From a virus: a stretch of DNA of 41,911 nucleotides. The translations under genes and the position numbers were made by a program. Below are positions 7,136 to 41,911 of this stretch, one piece after another (positions within the stretch are counted from its first letter, which is position 1; each line of letters starts with the position of its first letter). The stretch lies in the IMG/VR virus record IMGVR_UViG_3300029893_000022, positions 1 through 41,911 of that record. One strand, written 5' to 3'. The notes beneath the pieces are model-generated. The model was not told the DNA's origin and made no database searches. It saw only the letters and a program-made list of their open reading frames with translations.

Positions 7136-7279
7136 TTACAGGTCGAAAGCCAAATCTATGGCGTGAAGATGGAGTTTGGAGAACAGCGCACGGCGTTGGG
7201 TGGGTTCATCCCGCTTGCGTTTAATATGTCCCCAGTTGCGTACCGGCAACTCCCGCCGGCAACGACTACATGTTTTCAT
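7136..7279 (-). CDS. small basic Cys-containing peptide (47 aa)
   Basis: Not in the ORF track. ATG at 7279 overlaps the methyltransferase stop (ATGA); MKTCSRCRRELPVRNWGHIKRKRDEPTQRR...; lies just downstream of repeat copy R1, whose start codon is ACG instead of ATG. Confidence 0.35.
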   Translation of the reverse strand: MKTCSRCRRELPVRNWGHIKRKRDEPTQRRALFSKLHLHAIDLAFDL

Positions 7280-8001
7280 TCTGCGCCTCTCGTTCCAGCT
7301 CGTCTATGGCGTCCTGCGGCACATGATAGCTCACGCAGCATCCACCGTCCAATGTATTCTGTGTATGCTGGTGGGATCGCTTCCGCCAGTTCGCCGCGCG
7401 TCATCCAGTTTATTCCCAATGCGCTCCGCCCGACCGCCAGCGAAAAGTTATGGCCGATAATCGTTGCCATCTTAGATGGATCACTGAAGTATTTATTGAG
7501 TCTTTCAAATCCGACTTTCTCGCGTGTGCATCCCGCAGGGTAAAAATAGATGGAAGGGCTGGTTTCGAATCGCCTGTGTCTATGTGTTTTCAGCCCAAAC
7601 ATCGTTCCACATAGTACGAGCGAATCCTTGCTCAGCCCGTCTTCTCCAACCGCTTCGACGATGTTTTCGATGATGTAGGGTTTACCAGTTGCAATCAGCG
7701 TTTTGCGAACATTCTTTATCAGGCGTGGATAGACTGTGACATCTACTATTCCCTTCATGCGACTGTATCCCTGACATGGAGGGCTGGCGTGGATGATGTC
7801 GTACTCTGACCCGTGTTCCGTCAGGTAATCCAGGGCATCGCCCTGGATGAACCTGAACGGATAGTGTGGCTGCGGATGGATGTCAATCCCTGTAATGTCT
7901 ATAATTCCCGCATGATAATAGCCCATCGCCGCGCCGCCGGCCCCGCAGAACAGATCGAGCAATCTTATTTTGTTGTTCTCTTGCCTCTCGTTCCAGCTCA
8001 T
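7276..8001 (-). CDS. DNA (cytosine-5)-methyltransferase
   Basis: Motif I DLFCGAGGAAMGY, motif IV SPPCQGYS, ENV-like IENIV; 241 aa (compact). Start codon and AGGA RBS lie inside repeat copy R2. Confidence 0.75.
   Translation of the reverse strand: MSWNERQENNKIRLLDLFCGAGGAAMGYYHAGIIDITGIDIHPQPHYPFRFIQGDALDYLTEHGSEYDIIHASPPCQGYSRMKGIVDVTVYPRLIKNVRKTLIATGKPYIIENIVEAVGEDGLSKDSLVLCGTMFGLKTHRHRRFETSPSIYFYPAGCTREKVGFERLNKYFSDPSKMATIIGHNFSLAVGRSALGINWMTRGELAEAIPPAYTEYIGRWMLRELSCAAGRHRRAGTRGAE
7285..7324 (-). repeat. conserved gene-start module, copy R1
   Basis: gcctctcgttccagctcgtctatggcgtcctgcggcacat; about 92% identical to R2 and R3; the start-codon position reads ACG. Confidence 0.8.
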
Positions 8002-10908: not shown

Positions 10909-12345
10909 ATGTTGTATCGCTGTTATAATACAGTTATGCAACAAAGCCTGGAAAAATATGTTTCTGCGGCTAAAGACGCCGGTTGCACTGCCGATCAAAT
11001 GCGGCGATTCCTGACCGCCGGTTATATTGCCCTCCCCTGGACTTTGAATTTTCATGCCGCCGCACGCATGGCGGATCAAGATGACGGCCCTTACTGGATT
11101 GCCCTGGGCGGCGCACGCGGCCCAGGAAAATCCCACGCCGTGCTGGCACAAGTGGCACTGGATGATTGTCGTCGTCAACCAGGATTGACTGTATTATATC
11201 TGCGAAAGTTACAACGATCCGCAGGAGAAAGTCTCGAAGGTCTGGCAAAGCGTGTTCTGGGCAGGGTGGCTTATAGTTATAGTGGAGCGAGTGGGTTGTT
11301 GCGTGTGGGGGAAAGCCGGATTATCATCGGCGGTTATCGCAATAGCCAGGACATTGATCGCTATATCGGCCTGGAATATGATGCGGTCGTCATAGAAGAA
11401 GCGACACAAGTCGGAGAAGATAGAATCACTGCTTTGCGCGGTAGTATCCGTTCCAGCATTCAAGGATGGCGAACACGAGTTTATCTCTCTACTAACCCAG
11501 GCGGAATCGGACACCGATGGTTCAAAAAGACATTCGTCCGCGCCGATCCAACAACCCGCTTTCTGGGGCTTCCGGTTCGTTTCTTTCCGGCTACTTACCG
11601 CGATAATCCGTTCTTGAGCCGTGACTATATCGAATACCTGGAATCTCTGCGCGGCCCGTTGGGTTCTGCATGGCGCGATGGCGATTGGGATACATTCGAA
11701 GGTATTGCATTCCCAGATTGGAATGGTGCAGAACATGTCGTCGAACCATTCGATATTCCTAAAGAATGGCCGCGCTGGAGGGCAATTGACTGGGGCTATG
11801 CCGCGCCCCTCGTTTGCCTGTGGTTATCACGCGATCCTGACAGTGGAAGAATATATGTCTATCGTGAATATACTGCGAAGCAATTGACGGATCGCCAGCA
11901 GGCAAGGATCATCCGCGAATTGACATCGCCAGGTGAAAATATCAATATCACGTATGCCGATCCAAGCATGTGGGCAAAGAAGAATGTCGCAGATGTGGTG
12001 ACCAGCATTGCCGATGAATATCGAACAGAAGGTATAATATTAACGCCTGCTGATAATGATCGCATAGATGGGAAGCAGCGCATCCATCGCCTGTTGGCAA
12101 AATTGCCGGATGGCAAGCCTGGATTGCAGGTGATGTCTAATTGCGAATATTTGATCGAGACTATGGAAACAATTCCCAGCAGTTTAATCTGGCCCGAAGA
12201 TGTTGACACGGAGGCGGACGATCATGCCTACGATGCACTGCGCTATGCATTGACGAATTACGATCACAAGCCGACGGAACGCGTAGGAATGGGGATATTG
12301 TTATATAACCGCGAGTTTGAGAAACTAAGGAAGATACTGGGATGA
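10909..12345 (+). CDS. terL: terminase large subunit
   Basis: Walker A GGARGPGKSHAV; Walker B-like YDAVVIEEATQ; C-terminal nuclease-like region (IDWGYAAP ... DHAYDALRYAL). Start uncertain: ATG 10909 or ATG 10936 (MQQSLEK...). Confidence 0.85.
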   Translation: MLYRCYNTVMQQSLEKYVSAAKDAGCTADQMRRFLTAGYIALPWTLNFHAAARMADQDDGPYWIALGGARGPGKSHAVLAQVALDDCRRQPGLTVLYLRKLQRSAGESLEGLAKRVLGRVAYSYSGASGLLRVGESRIIIGGYRNSQDIDRYIGLEYDAVVIEEATQVGEDRITALRGSIRSSIQGWRTRVYLSTNPGGIGHRWFKKTFVRADPTTRFLGLPVRFFPATYRDNPFLSRDYIEYLESLRGPLGSAWRDGDWDTFEGIAFPDWNGAEHVVEPFDIPKEWPRWRAIDWGYAAPLVCLWLSRDPDSGRIYVYREYTAKQLTDRQQARIIRELTSPGENINITYADPSMWAKKNVADVVTSIADEYRTEGIILTPADNDRIDGKQRIHRLLAKLPDGKPGLQVMSNCEYLIETMETIPSSLIWPEDVDTEADDHAYDALRYALTNYDHKPTERVGMGILLYNREFEKLRKILG

Positions 12346-14934: not shown

Positions 14935-17900
14935 ATGACCGATCGTCCACCTTCCTCTCCTGATGCAGGTGAAATCTGGCGCGGCGTCTTCGGCGATCTT
15001 TATGGATTGGATCGCCCGGAAAGACAGCCGATGCGCCCAGAAGCTGTCGAGCGCCCAGAAATACCCAGGAATCTTGTCAGTTATGACAGTGAACGTCTCA
15101 AGACGCTCTATGGATTGACGCGCGCCACAACCAGACCGGAATGGATGGATGACCGCGTAAGCGGATTGATTGAGCAAGCGTACAACTTCTATGAGCAAAA
15201 CAATCTTTTGCCTACGGAAGTAGTCAGCTTGCTGGATGCAATTCCACTCGAAGGAATCCAAATGCCGCAAATTGGCGCCGAACCATTGCCGGAAATTGCC
15301 CCCGGACAGGCGCGTTATTACGGCATGACTGAGGAAGAATGGAATTCTTTAGACCCGTGGCAGCGATTGAGCATGCGCGTCATGGGAACGGCTGTTCCGG
15401 CGGGAGCGGCAACCGGTGCGGTAGCCGGCATTGCCGGAGGTGGTGGTCTTCAAGGTGGGATCGTCGGCGCGGCCATTGGTACAGGTTTGGGAGTCCTCGG
15501 ACAGAAGTTTCCGGCGCTGCAAACCTTCATGGATCGTGTGCTGGGCGTTGCCTGGCGCACCGGTAAACGCGCCGTTGGCACTGTTGGACTTGGATTGTAT
15601 TCGCTCAAACCTGGCGATGATTTCACGTTTGGTGAATGGATACGCAATCTGGATGATGCCTGGTATGCGTCTGAGCATGCGGCGCGGGTAATGCCGCTTG
15701 CAAGTCCTATGGAAGCATTTACCCGCCTTCAACCATTCCAAATACCGGTGGCCGGAATGCGCACCGGACTGGAAAGTATCCAACGCGGATTGGAAGGGCT
15801 TGGATTTGGTCGGCAGGCAGAACAAGTAGAAAAGGTTTCTCAACTATTTCCAGGGATAAAATCTCCGGTTGAATTGCGCATTGAGGATGGAAAATGGAAA
15901 GTATCCACGGTGCCCCGCCCGCAGATGGAAGCCTGGGAATTTGGAACGACTAAAACTCGCATCATCCCTGAAGAACAACAAGGCGCGCGGGCGCTGATCG
16001 AATATATGCGCCGTCTGGATTCTATCCCACCAGAACAGTGGGCGGAGGGACGTGCTGCCCTGGATGAAGAATTCGTGCAGCGTTATGGATTCCAGGGACA
16101 GATGAAAGAATTGTTGGGGTCTATCTTTCTCGATCCGTTTAATTATTTGGGGGGATGGACAACGAAAATAGCCGGGGGTGTGGGGAAATTACTCGGCGCA
16201 GCACCGGAGTTTGCAAATGCAATGGAAGGTGCAGCAGGGCCGGTTCAGGGTGTCCAACGCTTCAAAGCCCTGACGCGCACAATGGAGTTTGCGGATTGGA
16301 AACAATTATCGCCCATCGAGAAATGGTTGAGCGGCGCTTATTCCCCGGACGGAACACCAAAATTGTTGGAGAAGATGCCCAATGGCGGCATCCGTGGCGC
16401 AGCTTATAAGGCACTTGGCGGAGACAGCAGTCCTATCGCACGATCTTTTGGTTATCTGTTTCATCTGACGCCAGAGTCCAGAGTAAAAGAACTGGTCAAT
16501 GTTGGGTCTCAGAATATTGCCATGATCGCAGATCGGGCGGCAATGAACCCTGAACAATTCGTGAAGTTCGTGGAATTGATCGCGGATAATCAGATCGAAG
16601 CCGCTGCGCAATTGTCGGTAAAGGCATTTGGGGGGCCGGAGATGGGAGCGCTGATTCCTTCGTTGCGCGAGAATTTGCCCCTGTTGAAACAGGCCTTGGA
16701 AGAATATAACTCACCGCAGGCGCGCCAGATGCGCATTGCATTGCAGAATATCGCCAAAGTGAACAACATAGACGAAGCGACATTGATAAAACGCTTGATG
16801 GATATTCGCAGTGGTGATCGCAATGCTTTGACTTTCTTCAATAGCCTGCGAGAAACTGCTCAACGTGTGGGGGATGATGCAGCACAGGCGATATTGAAAG
16901 CCATTGATGATGGAGAATTGACGCCGGAAAGTCTGAAAGAATTTGCCGATGCAGTGAGCAGCAAGGGCGCAGTGTGGAGCGATAATCAGATGATCGGCAA
17001 GATGTATGCCACACTGATAGATGGCGTATCCCAATGGGCAGTGGATTATTATGGAGTAAAGCCCGATTCCTTTTCCATTCGATTGGGGAATATCGTTCGT
17101 CAGGTACAAGGACTGGTATTTCTGGATGCTTCGCCATCATATGCATTGCAGAACATTATAGACAACACATTGAAGATCACACGTGAAGGGGGTATTCTTG
17201 GATTTGCTATTTCCGGCGGGGCGCAAAAGTATATTGCGGATTTCTATCATGGGATTGCGCCAGAAAGTCTTGTGAAAGGTGGCTTGGCTGAATACTCATT
17301 CGGCGGAAAGGCATTGCCGGGTGCCATTGCCAAAGCAAAAGAAACACCGCCGGATGCAATTTCCAGAGCCGAAAAATTGATAAGCGGAATTCGGGAGAAG
17401 CTGCCTGTCTCGATGGGCAGATTATCCGCCAGGGCTGAGGTAAAAATGCGCACCGCAGCCTTTGCGGATGGTTTGCGCAAAGCAATGAACAATCTGTGGC
17501 AACCCGGAAAAGGATTTGATCGTTTGCCCGCAGAACTCGAAAATGCAATCGGCAAAGAAAATGCTCATGCTCTCTATAACAAGATCGCCGGGCTGCATGA
17601 TGGACAGAAGATTATTGATAGCCTGTTCGCCGAAGCAGATATTGGGCGGGTGGTAGATGAAGCTGTTGGGGATGCTGCTTCTGCTTTAGGGAAAGACGCT
17701 ACGGCGGCACGCCAATTGTTGGATCAGCTTGGCATCTTAGATCAGTTAAGAGAGAAATTACCGCCAGGGGCTACGAGCAATCAAATACATGCCGCCTTTG
17801 ATGACGTAGTGAAACAGGCGCGTCAGGAATTTGCCAAACAACATCGAGAACAAGTCATGGCGCGTTTCGAGAAGGCGATTAATAAAAGCTCCGAAGAAGG

Positions 17901-20900
17901 AACATTAGGGACATTGGCGGTTTTCGATGATATTTCTCAGATGCATTATGAGCAACGCATGTATGACATCAGTCAGTGGGATGCCATTTTTTCTGGGAAA
18001 GAGATCGGCGTTCGAGGAGATGATATTTCGGCGGCTGTGATTCGCCAGTATGAACAACAACGAGATGCGTACAAAATGCTCAATGAAAACGTACGCGCTA
18101 TGTACGCCGGTGTCTCTGAGGCGTTGGGAGTTGACAGCGCTTATGGAAAATTCTTTGCCAATACTGCTTTGGATGAACATAATCTGTGGCGTGGTTTTTA
18201 CGACACGGTTCTGGCGGACTATAAACGATTGCGGGCGGAAGCTGCGAAGCTGAAAGGAAAAGATGTACCGGCTCAGGAATGGAAGCGCATCAGCGATCTT
18301 TGGGCGGAAGTGAGAGAAAAGAACCGTCAGCTCTATATCGAGACCAATACCAGAGCTTTGGAGATACAGGCGGCGCGGGATACGAAAGTCGTAGAGATGA
18401 TTGGGACGCGCTATGGCGAAGAAGCTGCTGTGGCTGCCAAACAATGGTTGGATGGAGTACGAAACATAACAGACGAACTTTATACTGCTGTTGAAAACTT
18501 CCGCCTGAGCCTGGAAGAGATGCCACGTGAACAACGCGGCCCGGCGTGGGAGAAATTCTGGCGCGAGACCTATCAACCGTTGATGGCAAGACGCCTCGCC
18601 GAGAACCTGGCTGGCGCACGCGAAGTCTATGCACGGGCAATGCAAATCGAAAAATCTGGAGCGGCAAGCCCACCCAGAGCCGAACCTATTGCGCCTGCCG
18701 AGAAATGGGTTCAGGAAGCACGCCAGCAGAAATTATATGAAATGACCGGCCTCACCGAACAAGATCGTTTGTTTGTGATAGAGATGCGCCGTCTGGCTTC
18801 TGAGTATGGAATTCCGAGCGCAGATGAAAGTGGAAGACCGATTTCCGGTTTCGATAAACGCCTTATCAATACGATCAATAAATATGGTGGGACAGATTAT
18901 AAAGATATTCTGGAGATCAATCCTGAAATTGCACGCCAGGCATTGGAGCGGCATGCAATTGAAAAAGGAATTGAATTACCGCAAGAACCGCGCGTTGCTG
19001 ATTTTCCAGAACCTGATCCAGACGAGGTTCTGAAACTAGCACAGACGATTGAACAGGAACGGCTTGAAGGCGCATTGCGCGGATGGACAGAAGATTTACC
19101 CGGATACAAGCCGATTGAAAAGAAACCGACCGCTCCGACAGGAGCAGATGTGATTGGCGTAGCACCTCCAGGGACGATAGATGGTTTATCTGGGATGCCG
19201 CTTTATGACATCAATTGGCAAGGATGGAATACTGAGGTCAGCCCATTGTTGCGCGCATTGGAAGATACTATGCTTGATCCGACAAAGCGAGCAGTGACGG
19301 CTAAGAATCTGAATCTTACACCAGAACAAACCAAAGCCTTGCGTTTGTGGGCAGAGAAAGTTCGTGGACAATTGACAGATGCCAAGTTCGCTGCCACAAA
19401 GTTTTCTGAGATCAGTATGAATATGGCGATGCTGGATTATGATCGGCGTTATGGTTTAGATAATATTGCCAACTTATTCATCCCTTATCAATTCTGGTAC
19501 ACGCGTTCTGCACTGAACTGGATGCTTACTGCTATTGACCGACCGGCGTGGTTCGTGCAATGGCATCGCATCCGTGAAATGCAAGAAGAATTAGCCAGAC
19601 CGGTGGAAGGATTTCCTTCGCGTCTGGCGGGAAAGCTGGCTATTCCAATGCCTTTTATGCCGGAGGGTTGGGGCAACACGATTTATGTTGATCCGTGGCA
19701 TCAGATATTCGGTTTCGAAAGTATGCTTGCCCAGGTAACGCGGCCGTTGGCACGTGATATTTCTAATCGTGTTGGGCGTGCCACTTATATTATTGACGAA
19801 ATGATACAGAATGGCGAGATTACACCCGAAGAGGGCGATCAAGCCAAAAAGAGTCAATCCGGCGCAATATGGGAACAAGCATATAGACAAGCAGAAGCCG
19901 AAGTGAAGGCAGAAGTTTCCACACCGCTGGATTTGGTCAACACTGTGTTCTCATTTAGCTTGCCGTTGCAATGGGCATTAGAACGAACAGGATTATTACA
20001 GGATCGTTATGGTGGTGGTGTTGGTAGTTACCCATTGTTCTCCACCATTCAGAACATCACCAGCTTCATGACGCCAGGTGGAATCAACATACCGGAGACA
20101 ATATCCAATGCATTGGGAGCGGCTGAAAATCCAGAAGCCTATCGTGGTTTTCTGTATGAATACTATATTCAGCGCGAACTGGCGAACATGGCTGCTAATG
20201 GTGCAGATATTGAATTGATCCGCAAAGCAATGGTAGATAAGAGCGGCCCGCTTTGGGAAGCGGCGGAAAGAACTGCGGCACAACAACAGGCGGTTCGTTC
20301 TTTTGCGTCTATCTTCTGGGCGGACTTCTTTCCAGAGGGCGAAGAACAACAGAGAAAGTTGAGAACTCTATTCGAGCAATATGCCGATCAAGGAAAGCTG
20401 ACGGAGTTTTTCGATAAATATCCAGAGTATCAGGCGCGCATGATGCTTAGAAACTGGGATGATCCAGAAGCCATGATGCGTCAATTTTTGGTCAGCAATG
20501 CCTGGGATGCCTATTATAAATTGAGCGATTTAGAGAGACGCGCTGTGCGTGAACAGTTCGGCGATCTCTTTGCGGATAGTTTCTTGAACAAAGAGACGCG
20601 TAGCTATGACAGCATTGATACAGAGACGCTTGCCGGATGGGTGCGTGCTATGCGTGGGGTTGTTCCTGAAACTGCGCCAGGGGGGATGCCACAGATTGAA
20701 CTGCCGACGCCGGAATTAAGTGCGCTCTATGACCAATATAATTCGCTTCCTGGATCAGATTTGATGAAATTCTACTGGTCATTGCCGGAAGCGATGCGAG
20801 ATGAATTCAAGCGCAATCATCCAGAATATTATCAGTATCAGGATGCGAAGGCGATCTTTTTGATGCAGCATCCTGATCTATTGCCATACATCATTAGCGA

Positions 20901-21384
20901 GGATAGCTATCTTGCTGGCGCATCGCCAGAAGTTTTACAGGAATATTATTTCTATCTGGCTGAAAGAGCAATGTATTTTCCTATGATTAAGGCGACACAG
21001 AATCAATATTACAGCCTTCCAAAGAATGAACGTCGGGCATTTCTGGCGCAGCACCCAGAATTGAAAGCCTATTGGGATTGGAATAGAGATCGGAAAGATC
21101 AATTATCTCCAATGGCGCGTTATTATGTGATAGGCGAAGAGGGGATGCGCAAAGAAGCGCTGGGGAATTTATATGAGCCGGAATATGAAGTGAACTATGA
21201 GGTATTCCCAACAGAATTATTGACATTTCTGCTGGCAGAATCGCTTCTCAATCGTCCGCTGGGGCCGAGCAGCATGGCGACTCTGCGTGATATTTGGGAA
21301 CAAGAGCGCCCGCCCATGTCTTTTGAGGATTGGCTTGCTCTGGTAAGACAGGGATTTGCATGGGATCCAATCAATGCAAGATAA
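14935..21384 (+). CDS. giant protein (2149 aa), function unknown; possibly virion-internal or ejection protein
   Basis: A 6450-nt open frame between portal and scaffold/capsid genes; N-terminal Gly-rich hydrophobic segment (GTAVPAGAATGAVAGIAGGGGLQGGIVGAAIGTGLGVLG); otherwise largely helical and charged; no Walker or polymerase motif recognised. Confidence 0.8.
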   Translation: MTDRPPSSPDAGEIWRGVFGDLYGLDRPERQPMRPEAVERPEIPRNLVSYDSERLKTLYGLTRATTRPEWMDDRVSGLIEQAYNFYEQNNLLPTEVVSLLDAIPLEGIQMPQIGAEPLPEIAPGQARYYGMTEEEWNSLDPWQRLSMRVMGTAVPAGAATGAVAGIAGGGGLQGGIVGAAIGTGLGVLGQKFPALQTFMDRVLGVAWRTGKRAVGTVGLGLYSLKPGDDFTFGEWIRNLDDAWYASEHAARVMPLASPMEAFTRLQPFQIPVAGMRTGLESIQRGLEGLGFGRQAEQVEKVSQLFPGIKSPVELRIEDGKWKVSTVPRPQMEAWEFGTTKTRIIPEEQQGARALIEYMRRLDSIPPEQWAEGRAALDEEFVQRYGFQGQMKELLGSIFLDPFNYLGGWTTKIAGGVGKLLGAAPEFANAMEGAAGPVQGVQRFKALTRTMEFADWKQLSPIEKWLSGAYSPDGTPKLLEKMPNGGIRGAAYKALGGDSSPIARSFGYLFHLTPESRVKELVNVGSQNIAMIADRAAMNPEQFVKFVELIADNQIEAAAQLSVKAFGGPEMGALIPSLRENLPLLKQALEEYNSPQARQMRIALQNIAKVNNIDEATLIKRLMDIRSGDRNALTFFNSLRETAQRVGDDAAQAILKAIDDGELTPESLKEFADAVSSKGAVWSDNQMIGKMYATLIDGVSQWAVDYYGVKPDSFSIRLGNIVRQVQGLVFLDASPSYALQNIIDNTLKITREGGILGFAISGGAQKYIADFYHGIAPESLVKGGLAEYSFGGKALPGAIAKAKETPPDAISRAEKLISGIREKLPVSMGRLSARAEVKMRTAAFADGLRKAMNNLWQPGKGFDRLPAELENAIGKENAHALYNKIAGLHDGQKIIDSLFAEADIGRVVDEAVGDAASALGKDATAARQLLDQLGILDQLREKLPPGATSNQIHAAFDDVVKQARQEFAKQHREQVMARFEKAINKSSEEGTLGTLAVFDDISQMHYEQRMYDISQWDAIFSGKEIGVRGDDISAAVIRQYEQQRDAYKMLNENVRAMYAGVSEALGVDSAYGKFFANTALDEHNLWRGFYDTVLADYKRLRAEAAKLKGKDVPAQEWKRISDLWAEVREKNRQLYIETNTRALEIQAARDTKVVEMIGTRYGEEAAVAAKQWLDGVRNITDELYTAVENFRLSLEEMPREQRGPAWEKFWRETYQPLMARRLAENLAGAREVYARAMQIEKSGAASPPRAEPIAPAEKWVQEARQQKLYEMTGLTEQDRLFVIEMRRLASEYGIPSADESGRPISGFDKRLINTINKYGGTDYKDILEINPEIARQALERHAIEKGIELPQEPRVADFPEPDPDEVLKLAQTIEQERLEGALRGWTEDLPGYKPIEKKPTAPTGADVIGVAPPGTIDGLSGMPLYDINWQGWNTEVSPLLRALEDTMLDPTKRAVTAKNLNLTPEQTKALRLWAEKVRGQLTDAKFAATKFSEISMNMAMLDYDRRYGLDNIANLFIPYQFWYTRSALNWMLTAIDRPAWFVQWHRIREMQEELARPVEGFPSRLAGKLAIPMPFMPEGWGNTIYVDPWHQIFGFESMLAQVTRPLARDISNRVGRATYIIDEMIQNGEITPEEGDQAKKSQSGAIWEQAYRQAEAEVKAEVSTPLDLVNTVFSFSLPLQWALERTGLLQDRYGGGVGSYPLFSTIQNITSFMTPGGINIPETISNALGAAENPEAYRGFLYEYYIQRELANMAANGADIELIRKAMVDKSGPLWEAAERTAAQQQAVRSFASIFWADFFPEGEEQQRKLRTLFEQYADQGKLTEFFDKYPEYQARMMLRNWDDPEAMMRQFLVSNAWDAYYKLSDLERRAVREQFGDLFADSFLNKETRSYDSIDTETLAGWVRAMRGVVPETAPGGMPQIELPTPELSALYDQYNSLPGSDLMKFYWSLPEAMRDEFKRNHPEYYQYQDAKAIFLMQHPDLLPYIISEDSYLAGASPEVLQEYYFYLAERAMYFPMIKATQNQYYSLPKNERRAFLAQHPELKAYWDWNRDRKDQLSPMARYYVIGEEGMRKEALGNLYEPEYEVNYEVFPTELLTFLLAESLLNRPLGPSSMATLRDIWEQERPPMSFEDWLALVRQGFAWDPINAR

Positions 21385-22155: not shown

Positions 22156-23304
22156 ATGGCTGTCACGGATAGTCCATTCAGCACTTACAGCGATACCACC
22201 ACTCATCGCCGGGCAATTACGGATGTCATCAGCTTGATTGACCCGACCACCACTCCGGCGATTGCCGCGATGGGCGGTTTGGATGGAGCTGCTTCAAAAT
22301 TTCGTTTTGTGAACTGGCCTTCAAAGACTGTCGAATGGCTTGAGGATACTCATGCTCCATTGAGCGATACTTTGAATGAATCGGCCAGCATCACTTCTAC
22401 TGTCACCACGATTACGGTTACGGATGCTTCGCTGTATGAGCCAGGATACATTATCAAGATTGATAGTGAATATCTCTGGGTCTCCTCGGCTGCGATTACA
22501 ACCAATATCTTGACCGTTACTCGTGGCGTTGCCGGTTCTACGGCTGCGACCCACGCCTCCACTGCGTCTATTGAGATCATCTCCAATGCACGCGTGGAAG
22601 GTGCGGAAAGCACGCCGATTGCATTTACGACTCGTACAACCGGTTCGAATGTGACACAGATTTTCCATCAGGAAGTCAAAGTCCCGCGTTCGCAAATCAA
22701 GTTATCTCAATATGGCATTGCAGATGAAATGGCTTATCAGAAAGATAAGGCTGTTCCGGCGATTATGCGCATGATTGAGAAACATATATTTAACTCGAAG
22801 GCGCTTTCGACCGGTTCTGTTTCGGTTGGCCGCATCATGAACGGCTTGCAGGGCTTCATCACCACCAACAAGATCAGTGGAGCGAGTCTGTCTCAGGCGG
22901 CATTTGAGAATGCGGTTCTTTCCGCTTATAACAATGGTGGCGGCGGGCCGTGGGTGGCATTCGTCAATCCGGTTGTGAAACAGAAGATCAAAAACTTCTA
23001 TGACACGACTGGAGTAGCTTCGGCGACCATCCTGCGTGTATCTCAGGATACGCGCGAAGTCGGCATGAACATTGACCGCATCAACACCCCATTTGGTACG
23101 GTTGATCTGGTGATGACGCGTTGGGTTGCTTCCAACATTGTTCCCATCGTTGACCTGCAACACGTTGGGTTCATCACCTATGATCCGTTCCAGTGGGAAG
23201 ACCTCGCCAAGACCGGCGACTATGAGCGCGCCGAAGTGGTCGGCGAGTTCACCTTCTGCCTGCGACAGGAGAAGGCACACGCCATTTTGACCGCGGTGAG
23301 CTAA
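22156..23304 (+). CDS. major capsid protein (putative)
   Basis: AGGAGG RBS; 382 aa; position after scaffold; followed by a strong hairpin terminator. Confidence 0.6.
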   Translation: MAVTDSPFSTYSDTTTHRRAITDVISLIDPTTTPAIAAMGGLDGAASKFRFVNWPSKTVEWLEDTHAPLSDTLNESASITSTVTTITVTDASLYEPGYIIKIDSEYLWVSSAAITTNILTVTRGVAGSTAATHASTASIEIISNARVEGAESTPIAFTTRTTGSNVTQIFHQEVKVPRSQIKLSQYGIADEMAYQKDKAVPAIMRMIEKHIFNSKALSTGSVSVGRIMNGLQGFITTNKISGASLSQAAFENAVLSAYNNGGGGPWVAFVNPVVKQKIKNFYDTTGVASATILRVSQDTREVGMNIDRINTPFGTVDLVMTRWVASNIVPIVDLQHVGFITYDPFQWEDLAKTGDYERAEVVGEFTFCLRQEKAHAILTAVS

Positions 23305-23310
23305 TCAACT

Positions 23311-23340
23311 GAGGGGCGGTGGAAACGCCGCCCCTCTTCT
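23311..23340 (+). terminator. putative intrinsic terminator after the capsid gene
   Basis: GAGGGGCGG-tggaaac-CCGCCCCTC stem-loop followed by TTCT. Confidence 0.45.
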
Positions 23341-23350
23341 AAAACCGACA

Positions 23351-23575
23351 ATGTCTCTATCGAGCATCAGCCCCATTGTAAAGTGTAAATATCCTGGATG
23401 CGGGCGTTATGTGACGATTCAGATCGAAACGTTTGTTTCAGACCCCGACGGACAGATCATGCAATTATCTATGAAAACAGCGATGGAAAATGCATTGTGC
23501 GATTTCCATCGGCGTCAACGCGCCTGGTACTCACAGCAAGGGCGTCTTGAGGATTGGGAAGCCGGAAGACCATAG
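23351..23575 (+). CDS. small Cys-containing hypothetical protein
   Basis: 74 aa with CKYPGC ... CDFH; weak RBS. Confidence 0.4.
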   Translation: MSLSSISPIVKCKYPGCGRYVTIQIETFVSDPDGQIMQLSMKTAMENALCDFHRRQRAWYSQQGRLEDWEAGRP

Positions 23576-23586: not shown

Positions 23587-24492
23587 ATGAGCCACAAAAT
23601 TGATATTGGAATTGCCTGCGGACAGGTGCAGTATTCTTCCTGGTGGGGAAGAATGCTTGGCTTGCTATTACAGGAACAGCAAAACGGAATAGAAATTGGA
23701 CAGATCATGACCATTGGAAGCGCGCTGCCCGATTTCAACAAAAACAACATCGTTGGCGGATGGCGAAACGTCAATGAAAAAGGGCGTGCTTCGAAGACCG
23801 ATGCCAACCGCGTGGTGATTACCAAGAGATTCCTGGGCGGCGATCCACAGCATGATTGGAAGGCAGAATGGCTGATGTGGTTCGATGACGATACCGTACC
23901 GCCGGATAACGTCATATCCAGATTGCTGGCACACAATAAAGATGCAGTCGCCGGGCTGTATTTCAATCCCAATCCGCCGAAGAATCCAATTGCTTATGTG
24001 AAAAATAAAGATGGCGTTGGATATGACGCGCTCTATAATTTTCCTTATGGGGCGCTGATGCAGGTGGATAGCGTTGGGATGGGGTGTACATTGGTACACC
24101 GTTCCGTTTATGAACGCATCCAGAGTGAATTTGAAATCTTTGTCCGTCCTAATGGCTCTTATATGCCCATACATAAGAGCGCCATCTATAATAAGAACAT
24201 TCCAGAACTTACGGCACAACCGGAAACGATGAAAGAAATCGTCATCAATGGCTGGTATTGCATGCGAATACAAAAACCAGACGAAGACGATGATCGTGCA
24301 TTTCCATTTTATGCGATGGAATATGGACGGACAGAGGATCATCACTTTTGGGAGCTTGCGGCACAGGTGGGCATCAGACCGTGGGTGGATACTACGATCA
24401 CCTGCGGCCATATCAAACCGGCGGCTGTGACGTATAAGGACTACAAAGATTATGTCAATGGGGTAACATATGAGAATACTGGCGCAAGGTAA
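23587..24492 (+). CDS. GT-A fold (family 2-like) glycosyltransferase
   Basis: GAAGGA RBS; DxD-type motif MWFDDDTVPPDN in a 301-aa soluble protein. Confidence 0.6.
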   Translation: MSHKIDIGIACGQVQYSSWWGRMLGLLLQEQQNGIEIGQIMTIGSALPDFNKNNIVGGWRNVNEKGRASKTDANRVVITKRFLGGDPQHDWKAEWLMWFDDDTVPPDNVISRLLAHNKDAVAGLYFNPNPPKNPIAYVKNKDGVGYDALYNFPYGALMQVDSVGMGCTLVHRSVYERIQSEFEIFVRPNGSYMPIHKSAIYNKNIPELTAQPETMKEIVINGWYCMRIQKPDEDDDRAFPFYAMEYGRTEDHHFWELAAQVGIRPWVDTTITCGHIKPAAVTYKDYKDYVNGVTYENTGAR

Positions 24493-24958
24493 TCCCGAAT
24501 TAATCAAGCAACGATATGGGGGATTGGGAATTGAGATCGTCGAGGAATTATCTGAGGATGATAAAGATTTCGACATGATCGTATTGGATCATGTATTGCA
24601 ACAATTCAATCGGCGTGATGTGCCGGAAGCAATTGAATACTATAAGGAGAAATTGAAAACGGGTGGGGATATGATAGTCACCACGCCAAGCCTTGAATGG
24701 GCTTGCAGCGAGATCGTGACGAACGACAATCCATCTGCAATGGTCTATCTCAGCCTTTATGGCGACGACAATGTACAAAACAGAAGTGGCTTTACGCTGA
24801 ATTGGTTGCGGGCTATTCTTGAACGCGCCGGATTTTATACCAAGATAGCAATTGGAGAATGGTATATTGCCGAAGTGAATGGACAGCGGGAAAAAGCCAT
24901 GAAAAACACAGTCATTGGAACGAAAATGCCTGAGGATCCGTCGGAGGCGATTGAGTGA
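24470..24958 (+). CDS. methyltransferase-like protein (divergent)
   Basis: 162 aa overlapping the glycosyltransferase 3-prime end; DMIVLDHVLQ resembles the motif II region of class I methyltransferases, but no clear GxGxG motif. Confidence 0.45.
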   Translation: MRILAQGNPELIKQRYGGLGIEIVEELSEDDKDFDMIVLDHVLQQFNRRDVPEAIEYYKEKLKTGGDMIVTTPSLEWACSEIVTNDNPSAMVYLSLYGDDNVQNRSGFTLNWLRAILERAGFYTKIAIGEWYIAEVNGQREKAMKNTVIGTKMPEDPSEAIE

Positions 24959-25470
24959 TGCTGGCAAATTACAGGAAAGTTATCGAATGGGTGAAGAAAA
25001 GAAAGCCAGAACGCGGAGATATTCTTGAGATTGGTTGCTTGGGCGGAGATGGAACGCGTCTGTTGGCAAATGAATTTCCAGATCGAACGATTGTAGTCGT
25101 TGATCCGTTCGATATACAAGCCGACAAAACGCCGGGGATGGAAGAACTTTACCAGAAGGAATTGAAAGGGCGGGATCAGATCGAAGTCTTTTCGGAAAAC
25201 ATATCCAATGCAAAGGCGACGATCAAAATTGTGCCGATGGACAGCCGTGATTGGACGCCATCTGAGGAATTCTTTCTGGCTATTGTGGATGGAGGACATT
25301 CCGCAGATTGCATCGAAAATGATCTACGCAAGCTTTGGGCAATCACGCGTTATATTGCAGTACATGATTACGGAACGATGCCGGATGTTACAAAAGTCGT
25401 GGATCAATATATCGAGGCATTGAAGCCGAAGACAACACGCATAGATGATTTCATTATTCTGGAGTTTTGA
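24958..25470 (+). CDS. class I SAM-dependent methyltransferase (TylF/O-methyltransferase-like)
   Basis: GGAGG RBS; motif I ILEIGCLGGDGT; acidic-loop VVVDPF; AIVDGGH. Confidence 0.65.
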   Translation: MLANYRKVIEWVKKRKPERGDILEIGCLGGDGTRLLANEFPDRTIVVVDPFDIQADKTPGMEELYQKELKGRDQIEVFSENISNAKATIKIVPMDSRDWTPSEEFFLAIVDGGHSADCIENDLRKLWAITRYIAVHDYGTMPDVTKVVDQYIEALKPKTTRIDDFIILEF

Positions 25471-26669
25471 TGATATTCTTGATTTTTGCCTTATCGCTTT
25501 GGTATGCCTGGCGTTATAGTCGGACGGAGATTGATCCAGATTGGGCAATGTTCAATTTGGAGGGATTTACCGGCGCAAGATACGGCAAAGATTTCATTGA
25601 TTGCAAATCCCCTCTAATACACTACTGGTACAGGGGCATTGCAAAAATGGTGGGCAAAGACGTGAAACGTGTAAAGTTTGCCCACCATTTTCTTATATCT
25701 ATTCCTGGGTTCATCATTGGCGGGTGGCAGGGATTGGCATTCGTCGCTCTGGTCAATAGTGGATGGCTATATGCCTTCCACGGGAACGTCGGACAACAGG
25801 CGGCGGGATTGATTATGCTCTCGCTCTTTGCGCAGCAGGAATGGATTTCAACGGCTTTGTTGTTCGCTGCGGTAGCATTCGAACCCAAACTGGTATCTGT
25901 GCTTGTCATTCCCTTATTGCATGGGTGGTATCTTCCTTTTACACTGCTTTCGTTGACAGGGATAAGTATTGCGCTGCTAATACGCTTCTACGCTCCGCAA
26001 TATTGGGGCTGGTTATGGGAAGCGAATATTGTTGTGCCGAAGCGCATGACGGAGATGAGACGTAAACTGCTCAAAAATGGAGTGGATTATATCAATATTC
26101 CATCTCAGGGAATGTTATTCATCTTGCCGTGGCTTTGGTTTGCGATTGTCAATCGCCCAGATGTTCTATATTGGCTGCCGTTATTTCTCTATATGTTATT
26201 GATGATCGTTGGAATTGCTGTGCGCTCCAATCACTTCATTCCGTTGGCGGCGTGGATCGCGCTTGCTTTGCCACAGACGGCAATCTACGGATTATTGGCG
26301 ACGGAAATCCTGAGCGGAATGTTCTATTTACCCAATATCTGGCGCAGATATTACCCTGGACTGGCGAACATTAATCAAGATGCAAAGGCGGTTGGAGAAT
26401 GGCTGAGAGATAAGCCGGGCAGATTATGGGTGAATGGATTGCATACGGGAATCTATATCTATTCCGGTAAGCCGCCATTTGGTGGAATGACAGAACAAAT
26501 CGAGATTCGCGAGAATGTTCATGAACGGCGGGAGGCATGGCGCAATGCATTCAAGGCAAGTCCGCCAGAATGGGTGGTTGTTGGCTTCGAGCCAGGATGG
26601 AAATTCGAGCCAATAGGTTATAATCTTGTTGCGAAAACAATGCATAGTAATATCTACAGGAGGTCTTGA
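25470..26669 (+). CDS. polytopic membrane protein, GT-C-like glycosyltransferase (putative)
   Basis: GGAG RBS; about 400 aa with nine or more hydrophobic helices and a soluble C-terminal region; resembles lipid-linked-sugar-dependent membrane glycosyltransferases. Confidence 0.55.
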   Translation: MIFLIFALSLWYAWRYSRTEIDPDWAMFNLEGFTGARYGKDFIDCKSPLIHYWYRGIAKMVGKDVKRVKFAHHFLISIPGFIIGGWQGLAFVALVNSGWLYAFHGNVGQQAAGLIMLSLFAQQEWISTALLFAAVAFEPKLVSVLVIPLLHGWYLPFTLLSLTGISIALLIRFYAPQYWGWLWEANIVVPKRMTEMRRKLLKNGVDYINIPSQGMLFILPWLWFAIVNRPDVLYWLPLFLYMLLMIVGIAVRSNHFIPLAAWIALALPQTAIYGLLATEILSGMFYLPNIWRRYYPGLANINQDAKAVGEWLRDKPGRLWVNGLHTGIYIYSGKPPFGGMTEQIEIRENVHERREAWRNAFKASPPEWVVVGFEPGWKFEPIGYNLVAKTMHSNIYRRS

Positions 26670-28139: not shown

Positions 28140-29135
28140 ATGGCATTTGGAGATGTGATTCAGACGGCGGAGAACAGTGTTGCCAGCGGCGCAGTAACGG
28201 TGACGTTCTCCGCTGCGACGGCTGGGAACCTGTTGATCTTCTGCGTTGCCAGATCCTCAGCATTAGCAGTCGGGACTACATGGGGAACACCTACCGGATG
28301 GACTGCTCTGACTAACACACCAGAAAATGTTGGAAATCTGGGTGCGACCTGGTACTATAAGATTGCCGCGGGAGGCGAAACATCTGTTACCAGTGCCGAA
28401 AGCACACCGCCAGGCAATGGGCGTGGTGTGGTGGTGGAATTTGCGGGACCTTTTGCGACCACACCACTGGATCAAACGGCGGAGAATGAGAGCAATCTAT
28501 CAACCGTCGTTACTTCGCAAGCCAGTGGAACAACAGGAACGACATCGCAGGCGGATGAACTTGCAGTTGTGTTCTTTGGGGCAGATACGGCTATCAATGT
28601 GGATGAAAGCCGAAACTATAACAACAGCTTCAGTGAAGTGATCTTTTCCAATGCCGTGACGAACAATGCACGGGCGGCAGTGGCGGTAGCGCGGCGGGTG
28701 CTGAGCGCAACGGGAACATACTCTTGTACATATTCCTGTACCGACACCGGCGATGAGATGTACGGTGCAATTGCCACTTTCAAAGCGCAATCCGGCGGCG
28801 GTATTTCTGTGACGCCAACGGCTGCCTCTTCGACGGCGAGTTCGATCAATCCGACTGCTGTTTTGGGAAGCCTTTCTGTGACGCCGGGGGCTGCGGCGGC
28901 AAGCACGACCGTAGTCGCTCCCACAGCAATATTAGGAAGCGTGAGTGTGACGCCGAGTATTTGTACGGCATCTGCTTCGACAGTTGCCCCTTTGACGGTT
29001 TATGGATCGGTAATCATTGATGGGATTGTTGCTCTGGCAAGAGCATTGGTATTGAATCCGCAGGTACAGGGCGGCGAGACGGCGAGTGCAATCAAGAATG
29101 TGGCTCATTATCTCTTCGACAGATTTGGGAGATAA
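28140..29135 (+). CDS. tail fibre-like protein with tandem SVTP repeats
   Basis: 331 aa; C-terminal tandem repeats (ISVTPTAASSTASSINPTAVLGSLSVTPGAAAASTTVVAPTAILGSVSVTP...); Ser/Thr/Ala/Gly-rich. Confidence 0.5.
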   Translation: MAFGDVIQTAENSVASGAVTVTFSAATAGNLLIFCVARSSALAVGTTWGTPTGWTALTNTPENVGNLGATWYYKIAAGGETSVTSAESTPPGNGRGVVVEFAGPFATTPLDQTAENESNLSTVVTSQASGTTGTTSQADELAVVFFGADTAINVDESRNYNNSFSEVIFSNAVTNNARAAVAVARRVLSATGTYSCTYSCTDTGDEMYGAIATFKAQSGGGISVTPTAASSTASSINPTAVLGSLSVTPGAAAASTTVVAPTAILGSVSVTPSICTASASTVAPLTVYGSVIIDGIVALARALVLNPQVQGGETASAIKNVAHYLFDRFGR

Positions 29136-29162
29136 TATGTATAATAGGAATGGAGGTGTGAT

Positions 29163-29348: not shown

Positions 29349-30146
29349 ATGACGACCCTATTCAATGCCACGCTAGAACTGGCAAAAGTATTGGGCTATG
29401 TTATTTCTTCCACCACGACCGCCGATGGTTCAACCACGACACTCATAGACTCGGCGCGTGTCACTGAAGTGGATGATTTCTGGAATGGTGGCACACTCTG
29501 GATTACCAGCGGCACTTATAGCGGCAACAGCCGAAAAGTGACAGACTTTCTGAATTCTACTGGAATGTTCACTTTTTCGCCCGCTCTTGCCGGAGCGCCG
29601 GGAACCGGCAATACCTATAGTGTCATCAATGGAGATTGGCCGAAGGAAATGCTGATCCAGTTCATCAATCAGGCATTGCAGGACATGGGGGATGTTCCGG
29701 CGATTGACACCAGCCTGACCACCACGGCGAACACTGCACGCTATGCGCTGCCTTCGGGCGTCTATAACATCAAACGTGTGGAAATCGAAGAGAACATCAG
29801 CTCAGCTTATCCTTACATTCCGTGGTTATTGTGGCGAGAGATAGATGGTTATCTGGAATTCGATCTACAATATCCAGAAGCCGGAAAAACTATCCGATTG
29901 ACTTATGAAGCTAAACATGCCACGGTGAGCAGCGATGCTTCGATCATCAGCAATTACGTTGATCTGCGGCTGCTGGTGTGGAGTGCGGCGGTTCACGCCT
30001 GGCGCTGGCGGATGCAACGTGTGGGCGGGGATAAGCCGATCTTCCTGCAAATGATGAGCGAAGCCATACAAAATCGAGACAAATTGCTTGCAAACCCTGA
30101 GATGCGCAAGAGAATTCCGAAAGATCCGCGAGTGCCGTTATTATGA
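29349..30146 (+). CDS. hypothetical tail/structural protein
   Basis: 265 aa; stop overlaps the next start (ATGA). Confidence 0.5.
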   Translation: MTTLFNATLELAKVLGYVISSTTTADGSTTTLIDSARVTEVDDFWNGGTLWITSGTYSGNSRKVTDFLNSTGMFTFSPALAGAPGTGNTYSVINGDWPKEMLIQFINQALQDMGDVPAIDTSLTTTANTARYALPSGVYNIKRVEIEENISSAYPYIPWLLWREIDGYLEFDLQYPEAGKTIRLTYEAKHATVSSDASIISNYVDLRLLVWSAAVHAWRWRMQRVGGDKPIFLQMMSEAIQNRDKLLANPEMRKRIPKDPRVPLL

Positions 30147-38556: not shown

Positions 38557-38780
38557 CAGTAAGCCTCTAATCCGAGATAATGAATAATTGTCAAGGCGGC
38601 TTCATCTGCCGAATTACAATAGGCGCAATAGTAATCTTTATGCCCAAAATTTATTTCGGTGTCACTGAGTGCAATGAATAATCCTTGATATTGACCGCGT
38701 GGATAGGGCAGGAAGAACAATAATTCCTTTGATTCCCGCGCAGCCCATTCAAGCAATGCGATCATCTCTTCAATATTCAT
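38556..38780 (-). CDS. hypothetical protein
   Basis: 74-aa ORF. Confidence 0.45.
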   Translation of the reverse strand: MNIEEMIALLEWAARESKELLFFLPYPRGQYQGLFIALSDTEINFGHKDYYCAYCNSADEAALTIIHYLGLEAY

Positions 38781-39298
38781 ATCTCACCACAATCCAAAAC
38801 TTTATAACGGTGTATCACTGCTCCTGCCTCATCCATCTCTACAGGCGATAAATCTTTACCGCGCTGGTCTGGTCTGAGATAAGGCAGATCAATTGACCAC
38901 ACTTCTATTGCAGCAGCCGCGATGGACAGCGGAATATTTCCTATGACAATCCTGCCATCAATTTGAGACACATCTTCTACATGGTCAATGACTTTGCAGG
39001 AGGTATATCCGCGTTGTCGTAGCCACTCAATTGCTCCGGCATGGCGAGAGACAATGATGTAATAATCTGAAGAATGATTCGCCAAAACAAACTGGAGTAC
39101 ATTCTTCTCAATTGCTTCATCCACCAATGCTTCTGGATAACCATCCATAAGCGCATAGTGGCGAGCTTTGTCTTTCCAGCCTTCTTTCTCAAGATCAGAA
39201 AGAGATGGTTCTCGTGAAAGATACCAGGATTCTATGGCAGCCAACCTATAATTGCCTGCATCAACATATTGTTCAATTAGTTTATATGTGTCGTTCAT
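38777..39298 (-). CDS. hypothetical protein (173 aa)
   Basis: AGGAGAAAGA RBS; no family recognised. Confidence 0.5.
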   Translation of the reverse strand: MNDTYKLIEQYVDAGNYRLAAIESWYLSREPSLSDLEKEGWKDKARHYALMDGYPEALVDEAIEKNVLQFVLANHSSDYYIIVSRHAGAIEWLRQRGYTSCKVIDHVEDVSQIDGRIVIGNIPLSIAAAAIEVWSIDLPYLRPDQRGKDLSPVEMDEAGAVIHRYKVLDCGEI

Positions 39299-41775: not shown

Positions 41776-41911
41776 GTTCCTCTCCTTTCATTAGTGCCTT
41801 GACCAGCCGCGGATCATAGCGGCTGTTGGGCAAGTTACGGGCTGCCCGATACAGATACTCTGGGTCGCCGATGGCGATCAGAGCCTCGATCAGCCGCGGA
41901 TCGTAGCGGTC
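41762..41911 (-). CDS. C-terminal end of a tandem-repeat protein, 5-prime part beyond the window end
   Basis: Minus-strand frame open from 41911, reading DRYDPRLIEALIAIGDPEYLYRAARNLPNSRYDPRLVKALMKGEEHGHP then TGA at 41764-41762; same frame (mod 3) as the partial gene at 1..598. Confidence 0.5.
   Translation of the reverse strand, partial: DRYDPRLIEALIAIGDPEYLYRAARNLPNSRYDPRLVKALMKGEEHGHP

Follow-up and report, generated by a model that had tools for sequence, protein, structure and literature searches.

The presence of glycosyltransferase and methyltransferase genes within the head module of a phage raises the question of what their products modify: the virion, the envelope of the host cell, or both. 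The window analysed here (41,911 nt) is the complete, circularly closed genome (~42 kb) of an uncultured, podovirus-like phage with a SU10-type capsid. A first-pass annotation had placed four overlapping, co-oriented genes between its capsid and tail genes. All four ORFs are present on the plus strand (23587-26669); the first overlap is 23 nt and the next two are TGATG stop/start junctions. They encode a glycosyltransferase (GT, 301 aa), two methyltransferase-like proteins (MT1, 162 aa; MT2, 171/170 aa) and a polytopic membrane protein (GT-C, 400/399 aa). The annotated position was right on the capsid side, where the gene for the SU10-type major capsid protein (22156..23304, plus strand; Pfam SU10_MCP, E 1e-62; PHROG 1328, major head protein) lies just outside the cassette proper. 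On the other side it needed refinement, as what comes next is five further small ORFs and then the head-tail adaptor (29349-30146). Chance ORFs were rejected: 286 homologues were found for GT and 70 for the membrane protein, their lengths being similar throughout, and the gene order is recurrent.

DNA- and protein-level searches of 50,697 GenBank phage records revealed no relative of the region or of GT-C. A tblastn search of the same records with GT gave one partial match, not to a mycobacteriophage, and capsid identity to them was always < 30%. As no close relative was found among these records, no isolate could be used for annotation transfer. One scan of a genome collection returned a single 5.9-kb fragment, binned in a Planctomycetales MAG, which is too weak a link for a host to be named. 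The phage is present in the samples GCA_020724785.1, SRR29564165, SRR5011273 and JGI 3300007352.

A G+C-rich RNA hairpin (23311..23336, plus strand; 11-bp stem, GAAA loop), spotted by eye and by folding, starts 7 nt past the capsid stop codon. Its folding energy is -25.5 kcal/mol (z -5.7), and none of 200 shuffled sequences was equally stable. An equally strong hairpin, of different sequence, occupies the same place in about 14 of 23 relatives. A consensus promoter and terminator scan showed no enrichment and did not call the hairpin a terminator, because of its poor T-run. A conserved hairpin at this point would suit reduced expression of the enzyme genes that follow, and it is likely to be an attenuator or stabiliser with that effect.

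Between the hairpin and GT is a small ORF (23351..23575, plus strand) encoding a 74-aa conserved protein. It has no significant Pfam match, and alignment revealed conserved Cys/His pairs in a zinc-ribbon-like pattern (CxxxxC...CxxH/C). In tblastn searches of related loci it was found between the capsid gene and GT in most relatives. The four genes originally taken as the unit stand, but the conserved block also takes in this fifth ORF.

GT (23587..24492, plus strand) is a soluble, GT2-like protein with a single Rossmann-like GT-A fold and no transmembrane segment. Its DxD motif (D100-D101-D102) and ED motif (E250-D251) are invariant across 37 homologues, and the idea that it might be a non-enzymatic structural protein was rejected on the invariance of these catalytic motifs. 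The mechanism is probably inverting. GT scored 13.8 bits against Pfam Glycos_transf_2 (gathering cut-off 23.3) and 14.8 against Anp1 (28.8); as both scores are under the cut-offs, its family assignment is valid at the level of the fold only. A PDB sequence-profile search gave only weak matches, to Mnn9 and A197.

MT1 (24470..24958, plus strand), which starts MRILAQGNPE, has a class-I methyltransferase fold with a degenerate SAM motif I. It scored 24.6 bits against Pfam Methyltransf_23 (cut-off 27), over model positions 73-160, that is, the C-terminal half only. Orthologues with an intact motif I (VLDVGCG), which include that of L036, scored 28.6 to 54.6 bits, above the cut-off. In an alignment of 22 orthologues, MT1 is the counterpart of genuine methyltransferases from related phages; in this phage it may be non-catalytic. 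MT1 has been kept in several sub-lineages although motif I is lost.

MT2 (24955..25470, plus strand; public gene call from ATG 24958) is a class I SAM methyltransferase of the Methyltransf_24 type, with a Rossmann-like fold, an intact motif I (ILEIGCLGGDG) and conserved DGGHS and HDY motifs. Its own score of 26.1 bits is marginally under the cut-off of 26.3; its orthologues in the related contigs L098 and L007 scored 30.7 and 27.1. MT2 is confined to the close clade formed by these two and the window (three-sequence alignment), and a word-indexed search with it matched only MT2 itself. PDB searches with MT1, MT2 and an MT2 profile were uninformative.

GT-C (25467..26669, plus strand; public gene call from ATG 25470) has about ten membrane helices and a C-terminal alpha/beta domain of about 85 residues. 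The first loop, after transmembrane helix 1, contains the motif IDPDWAMFN...YGKDFIDCKSP, in which D25, D42 and D45 are invariant and D23 nearly so; we take this to be the catalytic loop. The structural model, predicted with confidence, has the GT-C fold, and 360 of its residues superpose on ArnT, the closest solved structure. By sequence the protein fell below every Pfam and NCBIfam threshold and had no PHROG match; a PDB search with its profile gave no match at E ≤ 10, and a Foldseek search of the model against BFVD viral structures gave none at E ≤ 1e-3. A handful of weak sequence links (E 1e-6 to 6e-4) run through proteins that themselves match GT87 or PMT_2, and in the first loop DPD...DCKSP of GT-C aligns with FDPDE...DHKQP of a GT87-type protein. 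GT-C is an orphan relative of the ArnT/PMT/GT87 enzymes, belonging to no described family. Divergent homologues in cellular-looking contigs adjoin GT-A genes, encoding a Pfam GT2 enzyme that is GtrB-like by eye in L097 and a GT-A-like protein with a DAD motif in L105. GT-C enzymes characteristically take their sugar from a lipid-phosphate-linked donor on the extracytoplasmic face (PMC11127046). By homology, the donor for GT-C would be a polyprenyl-phosphate sugar and its active site would face the outside of the cytoplasmic membrane.

The enzyme classes proposed in the first-pass annotation, a GT-A (DxD) glycosyltransferase, two methyltransferase-like proteins of which one (MT2) has a clear motif I, and a polytopic protein resembling GT-C enzymes, were all borne out. 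The HMM classification that it suggested for the two transferases failed to assign a family from sequence, with GT sub-threshold in Pfam and GT-C without any match.

Over 20 distinct viral contigs show the same gene order, with amino-acid identities of 37 to 76%. In each of the 23 distinct related contigs that were compared (capsid identities 37 to 67%), GT and MT1 come after the major capsid gene, usually accompanied by the 74-aa ORF. The minimal arrangement, as in L035, is capsid gene, small ORF, GT, MT1 and adaptor, and many relatives have the GT-A/MT1 pair without GT-C. On the capsid tree GT-A and MT1 are universal, and GT-C is limited to one clade with scattered absences. This pattern marks GT-A/MT1 as a lineage-core module tied to the capsid gene and GT-C as an accessory gene, acquired at the base of a single clade, with several later losses.

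The link between glycosyl and methyl transfer is reinforced by gene fusion. In five distant viral contigs (L049, L050, L077, L084 and L090) GT-A and MT1-type domains are joined in one protein, and the fusions carry an intact motif I. In two of them, L049 and L084, a capsid gene from another family (phrog_9953) precedes it, with the fusion one gene downstream. The slot after MT1 is occupied in L024 by a gene whose product is homologous to MycE (E 1e-20) and TylE (E 4e-13), both sugar O-methyltransferases; PDB searches with three more unassigned genes from this slot, in L042 and L044, gave nothing meaningful. Taken together, the conservation of the GT/MT pair beside the capsid gene, the fusions and the MycE/TylE-like gene favour cytoplasmic glycosylation of a virion protein with a methylated sugar.

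A composite cassette acting in two layers is our tentative best explanation, to which we would give somewhat less than an even chance. It builds on the folds, motifs, gene order, conservation pattern and fusions described above, and from these we infer donors, acceptors, timing and benefit. The first layer would be the ancestral one, consisting of the 74-aa zinc-ribbon ORF, GT-A and MT1, fixed directly after the capsid gene throughout the lineage. GT-A would be a cytoplasmic enzyme using a nucleotide sugar, with its methyltransferase partner working on the same product. Late in infection a sugar would be placed on a virion protein, for which the capsid protein is the prime candidate, and would be O-methylated where the methyltransferase is active. 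In this phage, with the SAM-binding loop of MT1 lost, methylation is probably provided by the inserted, intact MT2.

In the second layer GT-C, working at the outer face of the cytoplasmic membrane, would move a single sugar from a polyprenyl-phosphate carrier onto an acceptor in the host envelope, and host enzymes would both make the donor and flip it. An enzyme that is expected by homology to act on that face cannot reach capsids assembling in the cytoplasm, and host-envelope modification fits its position better. A plausible benefit is the masking of receptors on infected cells and on lysis debris. Glycosylation of the virion and modification of the host surface had been offered at first as alternatives for the whole cassette; the comparison keeps both functions and suggests one for each half.

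Several points count against this two-layered scheme. Adjacency to the capsid gene is circumstantial, as late phage operons pack unrelated genes tightly. The retention of MT1 after loss of motif I is hard to square with a strictly catalytic role in sugar methylation. The outward-facing active site of GT-C is a prediction from homology only. For a phage, apparently virulent, that alters the surface of its host by a late-expressed enzyme, we can cite no experimentally established precedent.

GT-C always directly follows the GT/MT genes, the four genes of the window being contiguous and translationally coupled, and this argues for one pathway. In such a pathway, which we regard as the main rival and yet as rather unlikely, everything would be directed at the host envelope: GT-A would charge polyprenyl phosphate, the methyltransferases would methylate the product, a host flippase would export it and GT-C would transfer the sugar to LPS, teichoic acid, capsule or S-layer. 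This would amount to a Gtr/Arn-like system without a flippase of its own. The lipid-linked donor that GT-C needs normally comes from a partner GT-A (PMC11127046), ArnT works with the GT-A enzyme ArnC, and the divergent GT-C homologues of L097 and L105 also have GT-A neighbours. In a variant, GT-A and a methyltransferase would cap a nascent lipid-linked host polysaccharide in the cytoplasm, in the fashion of WbdD-type terminators. Either version would serve to mask receptors or to keep out superinfecting phages.

GT-C might instead be a protein O-glycosyltransferase, PMT-like or of the kind that modifies Ser/Thr-rich regions in streptococci, acting on an exported or membrane-inserted protein of phage or host. 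The genome does offer a candidate target, a Ser/Thr-rich protein of 331 aa (28140-29135). Its gene is restricted to L098 and L100, the closest relatives, and its distribution over the lineage does not follow that of GT-C; a signal peptide was not established on it. Enzymes of the ArnT/ALG type, with lipid or glycan acceptors, outscore PMT enzymes as structural matches to GT-C. We consider this reading very improbable.

DNA hypermodification, in which GT-A would glycosylate a modified base such as 5-hydroxymethylcytosine and the methyltransferases would decorate the sugar, is very improbable: the invariant R/DDD/ED..F motifs of GT-A do resemble the R...DDD...ED(Y/F) of DNA-glycosylating phage GT-A enzymes (bioRxiv 10.1101/2023.12.21.572611) and a C5-cytosine DNA methylase is encoded at 7276-8001 on the minus strand, but DDD and ED are generic among GT2-like enzymes, a Pfam search of the complete genome turned up neither a TET/JBP-type dioxygenase or other 2OG oxygenase nor a thymidylate-synthase-like hydroxymethylase, even at a permissive E-value, GT is inside the head module on the opposite strand, 16 kb away from the methylase, whereas the genes of known DNA sugar-hypermodification pathways are clustered (bioRxiv 10.1101/2023.12.21.572611), and DNA chemistry leaves no place for a membrane GT-C.

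A GT/methyltransferase pair beside the capsid gene in several uncultured lineages would make virion glycosylation testable and possibly widespread, with a bearing on particle stability, on grazing or immune recognition and on host range. The Rosetta-stone fusions provide a clean functional link that is useful for enzyme discovery, particularly of sugar O-methyltransferases. GT-C, with a compact 400 residues and no family assignment, opens a new way into the study of lipid-linked sugar transferases; the retention of such a membrane enzyme among the late structural genes of a phage in which no lysogeny genes were seen would also be unusual. The most general reading would be that capsids coated with O-methylated sugars occur in many uncultured environmental tailed phages, by means of capsid-linked GT-A and methyltransferase domains, separate or fused, and that one clade has added a late-operon GT-C for the envelope of the cell about to lyse. 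This is speculative and, as a generalisation, unlikely. If true, it would describe a two-compartment glycan strategy, a shield for the virion and a mark on infected cells and debris, within the structural module of a virulent phage.

Among known systems, the three-component Gtr modules (GtrA, the und-P-glucose synthase GtrB and a GtrC-type GT-C) are similar in that a phage-borne GT-C adjoins a GT-A, and in the expected chemistry, with a lipid-phosphate-sugar donor outside the cytoplasmic membrane (PMC11127046). The GT-C transferase of such modules has its counterpart here. However, the genome contains no GtrB-like membrane-anchored polyprenyl-phosphate sugar synthase. A crude hydropathy scan of all ORFs of at least 40 aa in the complete genome found no GtrA/SMR- or MATE-type flippase, in line with the earlier remark that none was obvious; it picked out only GT-C and a holin-like ORF of 108 aa with three transmembrane segments beside the endolysin. 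The latter (702-1028) was rejected as a flippase because it lies within the lysis cassette. Pfam detected no integrase in the ORFs scanned over the circularly closed genome, several of which have no assignment. With no flippase, GtrB-like synthase or integrase found in these scans, the cassette is not a classical seroconversion (Gtr) module. Unlike the Gtr modules of temperate phages, it is located in a late head operon and not beside an attachment site, and it has methyltransferases and a GT-C from outside the described families.

To our knowledge, firm evidence for virion glycosylation among bacterial viruses is confined to mycobacteriophages. Cluster O mycobacteriophages have an O-methyltransferase gene followed by three glycosyltransferase genes (PMC11600133), and enzymes of clusters O and F1 (Che8, Rita) are reported to modify capsid and tail-tube proteins (PMC11600133, PMC11256854, citing Freeman et al. 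2023). As in those phages, a glycosyltransferase and a methyltransferase, here predicted, are phage-encoded, soluble and cytoplasmic. No sequence relationship was found by tblastn with GT against the 50,697 phage records. The pair in our phage has a fixed place right behind the capsid gene, with a membrane GT-C in addition; no mention of a GT-C was found for the mycobacteriophage systems.

The archaeal virus STIV encodes a minimal GT-A glycosyltransferase, A197, linked to its glycosylated major capsid protein (PMC10551542). GT has 18% identity to A197, whose substrates are themselves unproven; it exceeds A197 in length by about 100 residues and has additional conserved loops. For GT-C the nearest parallels are ArnT (GT83), PMT_2 and GT87 (PimE-like) enzymes, with which it shares the GT-C fold and a small C-terminal extramembrane domain; an acidic first loop followed by K-x-P is common to GT-C and the GT87-type protein (D-P-D...D-C-K-S-P against D-P-D-E...D-H-K-Q-P). 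Unlike ArnT (541 aa in the solved chain), GT-C has 400 aa and is phage-encoded.

In PBCV-1, protein A064R combines two glycosyltransferase domains with a methyltransferase domain and both builds and 2-O-methylates the N-glycan of the capsid (PMC7826918). PBCV-1 is a giant virus of a eukaryote, its sequences are unrelated and it has no GT-C partner; in the window, unlike in A064R, GT and MT are separate genes. The fused architecture of A064R is nevertheless mirrored by the GT-MT fusions of the five distant contigs.

Four co-oriented genes follow the capsid region on the plus strand, as the first-pass annotation had placed them: a GT-A glycosyltransferase (GT-A, 23587-24492), two methyltransferase-like proteins (MT1, 24470-24958, and MT2, 24955-25470) and a membrane protein (GT-C, 25467-26669). 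GT-A and MT1 share 23 nt, and the second and third junctions are TGATG stop/start overlaps. These ORFs are conserved genes: 286 homologues of the glycosyltransferase and 70 of the membrane protein were found, almost all alike in length and located on viral-sized contigs.

The window ends in an exact 79-bp direct repeat (1-79 and 41833-41911), most likely produced where the assembly of a circular or terminally redundant genome overlapped itself; we therefore take the window as a circular assembly of an essentially complete phage genome (~41.8 kb). The identical sequence is deposited as contig DYGH01000004.1 (assembly GCA_020724785.1) and was found again in several metagenomes. Plus-strand genes run from the large terminase (10909-12345) through a 567-aa and a 229-aa protein, a giant ORF (14935-21384; 2,149 aa) lying between the portal region and the scaffold gene, a 236-aa scaffold-like protein and an SU10-type major capsid protein (22156-23304; Pfam E 1e-62) to the cassette, five small or medium ORFs, an SU10-type head-tail adaptor (29349-30146) and a 913-aa protein. 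The giant ORF has no Pfam or PHROG match, keeps its size in relatives (2,046 to 2,149 aa) and is a candidate for an internal protein or an ejection protein. The minus strand carries the genes for replication and recombination: RecT, an AAA_25 helicase-like protein, D5_N and a C5 DNA methylase. The lysis cassette (702-2020) encodes a 108-aa holin-like protein with three hydrophobic segments, a 110-aa protein and a Peptidase_M23 + SH3_3 endolysin. No integrase was found in the genome. Two further minus-strand ORFs (38777-39298 and 5939-6460), one with a Cas_VVA1548 domain (E 5e-17) and the other with a weak DruA (Druantia) match below threshold, may have to do with defence or counter-defence. 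Among 50,697 phage records neither the region nor GT-C had any match and capsid identity stayed below 30%, so that no isolated phage is close; the sole hint of a host comes from a Planctomycetales MAG, into which a 5.9-kb fragment had been binned.

Relatives were compared by tblastn and ORF maps of 96 fetched viral loci, many of them duplicate windows on shared contigs, giving 23 distinct mapped contigs. Capsid gene, a 74-aa Cys/His ORF (23351-23575), GT-A and MT1 form a block in all mapped members of the lineage (capsid identities 37 to 67%) except contig L044, the only one with no MT1 match. The minimal arrangement, in contig L035, is capsid gene, small ORF, GT-A, MT1 and adaptor. Only about half of the contigs have GT-C, and many relatives have GT-A but no GT-C; on a neighbour-joining tree of capsids GT-C falls in one large clade, within which it has been lost here and there (L024, L025, L035 and L029/L034/L043), and the sister clade is without it. 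In about 14 of the 23 members the capsid stop codon is followed directly by a strong hairpin whose sequence differs between them (-25.5 kcal/mol, z -5.7 in the window), a feature consistent with attenuation of the enzyme genes that come after it. The region's best sigma-70-like promoter match (29116-29145; TCGACA-18-TATAAT, 11/12) closely precedes a 58-aa lysine-rich ORF and the adaptor gene, and a separate neck/tail transcript may begin there.

The first gene was expected to encode a DxD glycosyltransferase of GT-A type, and its predicted structure (pLDDT 85) indeed has the GT-A fold, with D100-D101-D102 and E250-D251 invariant in 37 homologues. Pfam GT2 and Anp1 matches were below threshold, so the assignment holds at the level of fold. 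No hydrophobic segment was found in the protein, which is far closer to protein- or glycan-modifying GT-A enzymes than to polyprenyl-phosphate sugar synthases. Since its structural neighbours include the collagen glycosyltransferases LH3, ColGalT1 and mimivirus R699, it is of note that one relative without GT-C encodes a collagen-repeat, tail-collar-fibre-like protein after MT1 (L025, 11006-12103).

The clear SAM-binding motif I reported for one of the two methyltransferase-like proteins is that of MT2, which scores at the Methyltransf_24 threshold (its orthologues pass) and is limited to the closest relatives of the window, L098 and L007. MT1 needs a more guarded description, matching class-I methyltransferases in its C-terminal half only and having a degenerate motif I, although orthologues with VLDVGCG are unambiguous methyltransferases. 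Both clades include members whose motif I is intact, and several sub-lineages, among them the window phage, have a degenerate one; MT1 therefore probably became a pseudo-enzyme more than once and was nevertheless kept. In the window phage MT2 probably stands in for its lost catalytic function. Directly after MT1, contig L024, which has no GT-C, encodes a homologue of the macrolide-sugar O-methyltransferases MycE (PDB 3ssm, E 1e-20) and TylE (8ia9, E 4e-13; 11309-12151), so sugar O-methylation appears to recur in this slot.

When ORFs of more distant viral contigs were searched with lineage-built profile HMMs, five contigs proved to encode single proteins with an N-terminal GT-A and a C-terminal MT1-type domain with intact motif I (L084, 9695-11218; L050, 9389-10789; L049, 6980-8383; L090, 1341-2528; L077, 9809-10939). 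Such Rosetta-stone fusions link GT-A and methyltransferase to one product. Two of the fusion genes, those of L049 and L084, are one gene downstream of a major head protein that belongs to another family (phrog_9953), so that the placement near a capsid gene recurs in unrelated head modules.

The suggestion that the last gene encodes a GT-C-like polytopic membrane protein is borne out by its model (pLDDT 94.4, pTM 0.92), which has the GT-C fold. Pfam, PHROG and NCBIfam gave no match, no counterpart was found among predicted viral structures, and an exhaustive profile search through 1.84 billion representatives yielded no more than 82 proteins, of which the weakest matches are of GT87 or PMT_2 type. 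Aligned with one of these by hhalign (96% probability, 344 columns), GT-C pairs IDPDWAMFN...YGKDFIDCKSP with FDPDEAVY...YRDLFDHKQP, which we take to be the acidic first-loop motif and K-x-P motif of ArnT/PMT/GT87-like enzymes. By sequence, GT-C belongs to no described family. Divergent homologues in high-G+C, cellular-looking loci adjoin GT-A genes: in L097 (265-3953) a Pfam GT2 enzyme, GtrB-like by eye, together with a FAD amine-oxidase-like oxidoreductase, and in L105 a DAD-motif GT-A-like protein. Another such locus (L101, 494-5886) pairs the homologue with a glyoxal-oxidase-like protein and a 2OG-Fe(II) oxygenase.

Capsids of tailed phages are assembled in the cytoplasm. GT-C enzymes typically take lipid-linked sugar donors outside it (PMC11127046). 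Given these locations GT-C would not plausibly glycosylate capsids, and its target would most likely be an acceptor in the host envelope. We infer every function of the cassette, and tentatively favour, at a little less than an even chance, two layers of action, because GT-C would act outside the cytoplasm, and GT-A is soluble, resembles protein- or glycan-modifying enzymes more than polyprenyl-phosphate sugar synthases, and often occurs without GT-C. An ancestral capsid-linked GT-A/MT module would glycosylate a virion protein, the glycan being methylated where the methyltransferase is active. Accessory GT-C would alter the envelope late in infection, using a host-made, host-flipped polyprenyl-phosphate sugar, and may in this way hide receptors on infected cells and on debris.

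The tight coupling of the cassette genes, and the GT-A partners of cellular GT-C homologues, could instead reflect a single Gtr/Arn-like pathway aimed wholly at the host envelope. This is rather unlikely, since GT-A is soluble, non-GtrB-like and independent of GT-C across the lineage, and the genome yielded neither lysogeny genes nor a flippase, the latter as already remarked in the first-pass annotation. It is improbable that GT-C O-glycosylates an exported protein rich in Ser/Thr, for instance the 331-aa one encoded at 28140-29135, which has two hydrophobic segments and, near its C-terminus, a threefold Ser/Thr/Ala/Pro-rich LGS(L/V)SVTP repeat (no DNA-level tandem repeat was detected in the gene), because this protein, found in the closest relatives only, does not co-vary with GT-C. 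Sugar hypermodification of DNA, which the R/DDD/ED motifs of GT-A and the C5 DNA methylase might suggest, is slightly less probable still, as no TET-type dioxygenase or hydroxymethylase was detected in the genome and GT-A is not clustered with DNA-modification genes.

For the proposed virion-directed GT-A/MT module there are precedents. Virus-encoded glycosyltransferases and methyltransferases act on capsids in PBCV-1 (A064R; PMC7826918) and, reportedly, in cluster O mycobacteriophages (PMC11600133); STIV A197 is a more tentative precedent for a capsid-directed viral glycosyltransferase (PMC10551542). The cassette belongs neither with the mycobacteriophage and chlorovirus gene sets nor with phage Gtr modules, because it has no sequence relationship to the former, lacks the anchored GtrB-like synthase, flippase and detectable lysogeny genes of the latter, and includes a GT-C of no described family; yet in the way we infer it to work, it is partly like both.
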